From assembly GCA_000004985.1 (NCBI GenBank), contig GG739147.1: DNA of 7,319 nt; one strand, given 5' to 3'. Under the pieces are notes generated by a model, which was given only the letters and a program-made list of their open reading frames with translations, had not been told where the DNA came from and did not search any database. The first letter of the stretch is position 1; each line of letters begins with the position of its first letter. The DNA is from Naegleria gruberi. Taxonomy: Eukaryota. Shown here piece by piece: positions 5,563-6,160 of the stretch. A program made the position numbers and the translations under genes.

Positions 5563-5563
5563 A
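5558..5563 (+). terminator. AATAAA hexamer overlapping the TAA stop (candidate polyadenylation signal)
   Basis: The bases gaATAAAaag at 5557-5566 put the stop codon inside AATAAA. Stop codons embedded in poly(A) signals are typical of very compact eukaryotic genomes. In A+T-rich DNA the hexamer is also expected by chance. Confidence 0.25.
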
Positions 5564-5671
5564 AAGAATTAAAGAGTGAATTAGAATATGAAATTGATAA
5601 TTTCCAAAAATTGCTTGCCAAGAAACTTGCCATTAATGAAATGGGAGAACCCACCATCTTGACAACAGCCC

Positions 5672-6160
5672 ATGCAATCAGATTCTATCAAGAAATTATC
5701 AAAGAAGCTTTATAAGGCATCAAGAGATGGTTTCCAATCAAAGCAATTCCACACCAAATGTGATAATCAAGGAGCAACTGTTACAATTATTAAGGCTGAT
5801 ACAGGTGCTATTTTCGGTGGATATACATCTGCTGCTTGGAATACTACTGTCATGAGTCAATTTGCCTATTCTGAACGTGCCTTTTTGTTTAGTTTAGTTT
5901 CTAATAGTGGTGAAGAAAGATTTAAAAAGTTGAATCAACTTGCACCACCTAATTCACCAAGTCAAGGAAGATCAATTTATTCCCATTCTCGTTTTGGTCC
6001 TACTTTTGGTGGAGGTCATGATTTATATATTTGTTCTAATGCCCACGAAAATACTGGAAGTTATTGTCATCCAAATACTTATGCTGATTTTGGAAAAGAG
6101 TATTTAGCAGGTTCTTACAAGGAATGGCTTGTAAAGGACATTGAAGTTTATTCACTTTAA
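5672..6160 (+). CDS. TLDc-domain protein (Oxr1/NCOA7/TBC1D24-type TLDc fold), 162 aa as annotated; true start probably upstream
   Basis: The ORF-track product is 162 aa (5672-6160, TAA at 6158-6160). The translation carries the hallmark TLDc motifs: LYKASRDGF, FHTKCDNQG, TVTIIKADTGAIFGGYTSAAW, ERAFLFSL, RFGPTFGGGHDLYI and a C-terminal ...KDIEVYSL. Codon usage is strongly A/T-biased at third positions. The annotated ATG at 5672 has a poor context (cagcccATGc), with no A-run like the other starts, so the true start is probably upstream. Confidence 0.75.
   Translation: MQSDSIKKLSKKLYKASRDGFQSKQFHTKCDNQGATVTIIKADTGAIFGGYTSAAWNTTVMSQFAYSERAFLFSLVSNSGEERFKKLNQLAPPNSPSQGRSIYSHSRFGPTFGGGHDLYICSNAHENTGSYCHPNTYADFGKEYLAGSYKEWLVKDIEVYSL

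Follow-up and report, generated by a model that had tools for sequence, protein, structure and literature searches.

The annotated short TLDc gene NAEGRDRAFT_76777 of Naegleria gruberi has a mundane explanation: it is a truncated and redundant gene model based on a damaged copy of a TLDc gene that is already annotated, NAEGRDRAFT_52410. Judged by sequence comparison, the damaged copy occupies positions 5467-6160 of the stretch of DNA analysed here (7,319 nucleotides, called the window below). The annotated product is the longest ATG-started ORF that remains after the lesions and has no natural N-terminus. NAEGRDRAFT_76777 does not merit an entry of its own, as a further short TLDc gene, in gene-family or pangenome tallies.

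The window is the entire 7,319-bp N. gruberi scaffold carrying NAEGRDRAFT_76777 (P0001). It is composed of two contigs (positions 1-888, 888 bases, and 5465-7319, 1,855 bases) separated by a run of N (889-5464, without strand), which we take as a scaffold gap. Real sequence amounts to 2,743 of the 7,319 bp. All features described below lie on the plus strand.

Frame 1 reads TNMGLEASDLFGKSSPLHDVYVSKKQTRKTE, a stop (TAA at 5560-5562), KELKSELEYEIDNFQKLLAKKLAINEMGEPTILTTAHAIRFYQEIIKEAL and a second stop (TAA at 5713-5715). Frame 2 is open from 5663, after a TGA at 5660-5662, and reads MQSDSIKKLSKKLYKASRDGF... to 6160; the two ORFs overlap by about 50 nt. The annotated gene model (NAEGRDRAFT_76777; EFC35567.1 / XP_002668311.1 / D2W5T4), of 162 amino acids, is 100% identical to the frame 2 ORF at 5672-6160. 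This ORF matches the Pfam TLD family (PF07534) with 76.5 bits (cut-off 24.5) over profile positions 29 to 168 of 170. Since the match begins only at position 29, the start of the domain is absent from the ORF. Residues 1-12 (MQSDSIKKLSKK) are an out-of-frame reading of helix-coding DNA. The annotated protein is therefore without the first TLDc helix, which is replaced by an out-of-frame peptide. No single frame of the window carries a complete TLDc domain: frame 1 contains the codons for residues 105-125 (numbered according to the intact copy described below), and residues 126-133 have lost theirs to the deletion.

The 90%-identity cluster that includes this ORF has a second member, NAEGRDRAFT_52410 (P0121; EFC39498.1 / XP_002672242.1; UniProt D2VUR3). 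This is a protein of 283 amino acids encoded by a single uninterrupted ORF (...ISLLE-TNMGLEASDLFGKSSPLHDVYVSKKQTRKTELLELKSELEYEIDNFQKLLAKKLAINEMGESTILTTAHAIRFYQEIINEVKMKPLKLLYKASRDGF...) on a 331,038-bp N. gruberi scaffold. A tblastn comparison aligns P0121 with the window first in frame 1 and then in frame 2. Residues 46-125 match frame 1 at 5467-5706 (76 of 80 identical). Residues 132-283 match frame 2 at 5702-6157 (151 of 152 identical) and, within these, residues 134-283 match 5708-6157 without a single difference (150/150). Eight residues are left unaligned between the two matches.

The differences between the two copies, scored from the protein sequence of the intact copy, are few and can be listed along the window. 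The first 31 codons after the gap edge (5467-5559) are identical to residues 46-76, in the N-terminal helical part of the protein (31/31 by tblastn). At 5560-5565, TAA AAA stands in place of Leu77-Leu78, giving a premature in-frame stop at 5560 and a Leu78 to Lys change in the neighbouring codon (5563). The next segment (5566-5706) corresponds to residues 79-125, with 45 of 47 codons identical; the two exceptions are Ser107 to Pro (5650) and Asn124 to Lys (5701). It contains the end of a long helix, the start of the TLDc domain at 5644 (GEPTILT) and the first TLDc helix (5665-5706). The deletion junction lies at 5706-5708, where P0121 would have 24 nt (residues 126-133, VKMKPLKL) and the window has 1 nt. 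This net loss of 23 nt shifts the remainder of the domain into frame 2, which then follows residues 134-283 to the TAA stop at 6158-6160 (5708-6160; 150/150). The copy thus carries a premature stop at codon 77 (TAA) and a frameshifting 23-nt deletion, two disabling lesions of the kind expected of a pseudogene or null allele. Translation from the native start would terminate at codon 77, after 76 codons.

These results bear directly on the original prediction, which was made from the raw sequence and proposed that the true N-terminal part of the TLDc domain lies upstream of the annotated start, in frame 1. The alignment of a near-identical intact copy, first to frame 1 and then to frame 2, confirms this extension, with 76 of 80 residues matching in frame 1. 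The reading frames are as they were described (frame 1 open to 5715 save for the TAA at 5560-5562). The segment with the ILT motif, proposed as the domain start, is where the Pfam match to P0121 begins (residue 105, position 5644, GEPTILT). Frame 2 encodes the body of the domain, as expected, and the TAA at 5560 does interrupt an otherwise continuous ORF, since P0121 has Leu77 at this position. An indel of one nucleotide had been placed at about 5685-5712: the interval was right but the size was not, the event being a net 23-nt deletion between 5706 and 5708. Two other suggestions must be abandoned. The ATG at 5641, thought to be a better start, encodes the internal Met104, and the start of P0121 would fall at about 5332, 45 codons ahead of the gap edge. 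Nor does a large gene span the gap and end in the TLDc domain: on the other side, positions 387-888 encode the start of a separate protein of 311 amino acids, P0122 (167/167 identical residues).

The profile searches by themselves would not have led to this conclusion. Against Pfam TLD, nine different frame 1/frame 2 fusion junctions scored 75-77 bits, compared with 76.5 for the ORF alone, and fusion at the frame 1 stop (5712) scored only 68.2 bits, with loss of a conserved Leu-Tyr. The general TLD profile is neutral concerning the frame 1 extension, providing neither support nor refutation. We also built a sub-family HMM from 52 homologues and used 200 shuffled frame 1 peptides as a null. With this model the fusions scored 172.9-176.6 bits and the ORF alone 173.0, while the shuffled peptides scored 173.5 +/- 2.0 and reached at most 180.5. 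The frame 1 extension therefore gave no gain over chance (at most 3.6 bits above the ORF, inside the 200-shuffle null). Because the spacing is reduced by the deletion, the motif on its own does not reach significance. Clearly, a motif-based guess from raw sequence can prove right where profile scores give no support.

The motif itself is a genuine feature of the family. In most of the more distant homologues, S-x-I-L-T occurs about 20 residues ahead of LLYRASRDGF. Among the 98 homologues with a recognisable anchor motif, 56 have at least 30 residues upstream of it, usually including S-x-I-L-T. The best relatives are short stand-alone TLDc proteins of corals (Porites, Pocillopora, Oculina and Acropora) and of uncultured metagenomic protists, with 36-47% identity. 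They share with the Naegleria protein the motifs S-x-I-L-T ... LLYRASRDGF ... GPTFGGGHDLYI and are similar in size (160-280 amino acids). They are not orthologues, and none has the helical N-terminal region of the Naegleria protein. No relative starts with MQSDSIKK, which would have been expected of orthologues if the annotated start were correct. Between these proteins and the Naegleria TLDc protein itself, that is, from 47% to 100% identity, no relative was found. A metagenome scan using a gapped pattern that spans the junction, and fits either the deleted or the intact version, gave 0 matches.

The intact protein provides a view of what the annotated fragment is missing. Pfam TLD matches P0121 over residues 105-282 (profile 3-168, 87.6 bits). 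An AlphaFold2 model, generated with 41 homologues (mean pLDDT 85.1, pTM 0.76), includes helices at residues 22-48, 52-56 and 61-104. The first TLDc helix in the model (residues 112-126; block-mean pLDDT 79-90), encoded in frame 1 at 5665-5706 of the window, leads to the first strand (132-137, KLLYKA). Profile positions 3-28, missing from the 162-amino-acid ORF, correspond to this helix. According to the model, NAEGRDRAFT_52410 consists of a long alpha-helical region of about 100 residues and, after it, a complete TLDc domain. The original prediction had named LysM, GRAM or TBC as usual N-terminal partners; Pfam shows none of these in P0121, and the model has long helix there instead.

When the P0121 model was compared with the PDB using Foldseek, the top 15 matches were all TLDc domains, an assignment that applies to the intact copy only. 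The structures with the same fold include NCOA7 (8AR6, 7OBP and 7UZG), TBC1D24/Skywalker (6R82), zebrafish OXR2 (4ACJ), mEAK7 (7U8O, 7U4T and 7UNE) and yeast Oxr1 bound to V1 (7FDE). Foldseek probability was 1.00, and target-normalised TM scores were 0.66-0.80 for isolated domains. These proteins share the Pfam TLD family with P0121, with a sequence identity of 13-19%. They differ at the N-terminus, which in P0121 is helical and coiled-coil-like instead of a LysM, GRAM, TBC or EF-hand partner. Because several of the structural matches are V-ATPase complexes (7U8O, 7UZG and 7FDE), we infer that the intact Naegleria protein may be a coiled-coil plus TLDc protein and a putative V-ATPase binder.

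How the lesions arose is less clear-cut than what they have done to the gene model. We favour, at somewhat better than even chances, a sequencing or cloning artefact in an organism with a single intact gene. One badly sequenced or rearranged clone or read, which failed to join the main scaffold during assembly, would have lost 23 nt just past the first TLDc helix and would carry TAA at Leu77; the leftover ORF would then have been annotated as a 162-amino-acid protein. An artefact is favoured because the lesions are clustered: all four codon differences and the deletion fall within 5560-5707 (148 nt), while the other 317 comparable codons (150 downstream and 167 in contig 1) are unchanged (Fisher p = 0.0016). 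The position of the cluster, 96-243 nt from the contig end, points the same way, as does the fact that deriving TAA AAA from Leu-Leu requires at least three substitutions in 6 nt, which is unusual for independent mutations. In addition, 2,743 bp represents few Sanger reads, below the share of a multi-fold shotgun that a second haplotype would receive, and a true second haplotype should assemble continuously. Finally, one contig matches a gene of the 331-kb scaffold and the other a gene of the 371-kb scaffold, for which a leftover or chimeric clone is a better explanation than a clean haplotig. The other serious reading, to which we give a substantial but rather less than even chance, is that the lesions are real and that the window represents a second, inactivated version of NAEGRDRAFT_52410 (an allele or a duplicate of very recent origin), which as a null allele or young pseudogene was split from the main scaffold by its differences. 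It accounts for the same P0121 alignment. A clean 23-nt deletion with perfect flanks resembles a genuine mutation and is untypical of base-calling error, so that an artefact would have to include a deletion during cloning. Moreover, the 31 codons at the very contig edge (5467-5559) are free of errors and quality does not, therefore, simply decay towards the contig end. An indel with clustered SNPs is typically what makes assemblers separate haplotypes, and a divergent allele is plausible since heterozygosity has been reported in N. gruberi (the genome paper is cited for it in a later pangenome paper, PMC9928731). On the other hand, at least five substitutions in 143 nt imply a certain age, yet 150 of 150 downstream codons and 167 of 167 in contig 1 are identical. 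Nor is there a sign of relaxed constraint along the whole copy: changes affect 4 of 80 upstream codons and 0 of 150 downstream (Fisher p = 0.014, at the protein level). If the lesions do prove to be real, strain NEG-M would have a null allele of one TLDc gene, a minor population-genetic fact.

Two further readings would give the window copy a functional product. In the first, ATG 5672 gives rise to a short TLDc protein of 162 amino acids that is real and functional, and the frame 1 similarity has no bearing on it. We consider this very improbable. It is true that the ORF is intact, that its Pfam score is far above the cut-off and that some metagenomic homologues are of similar length and start near LLYRASRDGF, although many of these are from short, possibly truncated contigs. 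However, its first 12 residues are read out of frame over DNA that shares 95% identity with the intact paralogue when read in frame 1, it has no equivalent of profile positions 3-28 (helix 112-126 in the model), and more than half of the anchored homologues (56/98) have the upstream residues that it lacks. The promoter and start context have nothing distinctive, and the gene would sit inside the transcript of the disrupted one. The second is programmed recoding, in which readthrough of the TAA at 5560 and a +1 frameshift near 5701-5707 (for example, Lys-tRNA moving from AAA to AAG) would restore a full-length protein. The overlap of the two ORFs is compatible with this, and AAA-G at 5701-5704 could in principle permit +1 re-pairing. 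Nevertheless, the interruption is not conserved, the near-identical copy being a plain ORF with 23 extra nt and Leu at the position of the TAA. Two independent events would be needed and the product would still be eight residues short where the first helix leads into the first strand. The AAA is not followed by a stop or by a rare or slow codon that might stimulate slippage, and a shift at the frame 1 stop (TTA-TAA) would cost 6.5-8 bits. An Rfam search returned no element, and the RNA fold downstream of the shift site is no stabler than that of shuffled sequences (z = -0.95). Recoding as the explanation is hardly credible and, for the window copy, effectively excluded; the original prediction, which ranked error or pseudogene above recoding, is upheld on this point. 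A copy that is real, expressed and either rescued by readthrough and the AAA-G frameshift (5701-5704) or used deliberately to make a helix-less isoform of 162 amino acids from ATG 5672 would be a first for Naegleria in either case, and we regard it as having almost no chance of being correct.

Genes with an obligatory +1 frameshift include antizyme, bacterial prfB and those with the AAA-TAA/TAG sites of Euplotes. As in the window, they combine a pair of overlapping ORFs, of which the one in the +1 frame encodes the body of the domain. They differ in that their shift site is conserved in homologues and is located at a stop or slow codon, whereas the nearest homologue of the window copy has no shift and a shift at the window's stop would destroy a conserved motif. 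A +1 shift at TTA-TAA was rejected for this reason, since the conserved LY is lost. We also rejected the idea that an intron causes the frame change: 5563-5715 contains a single GT, at 5576, the spacing from helix to strand is too tight and the intact copy is colinear.

With regard to the nature of the changes, minimal codon paths, deduced from the protein alone, have four of the five inferred substitutions creating an A (TTA to TAA, YTA to AAA and AAY to AAA, at 5560-5565 and 5701-5703). This pattern is suggestive of a systematic miscall, as far as codons reconstructed in this way can indicate.

We regard the window as a small, redundant scaffold in the N. gruberi Sanger assembly. Two of its genes are duplicated on large scaffolds: the TLDc gene (P0121, on the 331,038-bp scaffold) and the ORF at 387-888, whose 167 residues are identical to the N-terminus of P0122, encoded on a scaffold of 371,401 bp. 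The redundancy covers these two genes and not the RING or pseudouridine-synthase-like genes described below. Full redundancy is argued against by the pseudouridine-synthase-like gene (6584-7319), which has no annotated N. gruberi counterpart. The run of N can be read as a true gap since P0122 is recorded on one contig only (that of 371 kb), as would be expected if its copy in the window was truncated by the gap and never annotated. The gap would contain codons 1-45 of the TLDc gene (MSSHVV...ISLLE), with a start at about 5332 if there is no intron, and also the last 144 or so codons of the unrelated 311-amino-acid gene that begins at 387 and would end near 1320.

The window links copies of genes from the 331,038-bp and 371,401-bp scaffolds; it either bridges their ends or derives from a chimeric clone. 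P0122 has no Pfam domain, and a hydrophobic segment closes the stretch that it has in common with the window ORF. Upstream, at 68-382, is an ORF of 104 amino acids with a RING-H2 finger (zf-RING_2, E = 5e-13) and a hydrophobic C-terminal tail. Its stop ends 4 nt ahead of the ATG at 387. The ORF has no match among the N. gruberi proteins in the database and appears to be unannotated.

At the other end of the window, the start of the pseudouridine-synthase-like gene (6584-7319, running off the scaffold end) carries the motif RTDRGVSA and has a Thr-rich, Asn/Lys-rich N-terminus of low complexity. None of the annotated N. gruberi proteins matches it. Its best relative, P0123 (638 amino acids, PF01416, 51% identity; Logan SRR29240419, L001), is on an 8.8-kb contig where tblastn detected no TLDc gene and where the neighbours are not syntenic with the window. 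For the RING ORF and the ORFs at 387-887 and 6584-7318, as written, the sequence collection contained no exact protein match. The spacer of 423 nt between the TLDc gene and the pseudouridine-synthase-like gene includes an open frame of 66 codons (6282-6482), ending in SKISKKDEIVDVVCQLMNNCEIAHLHLILQKQIVSKAVQIVKGANVKYEMQPQQYITKLIPKAKM before its stop, which could be a small gene, an exon or nothing.
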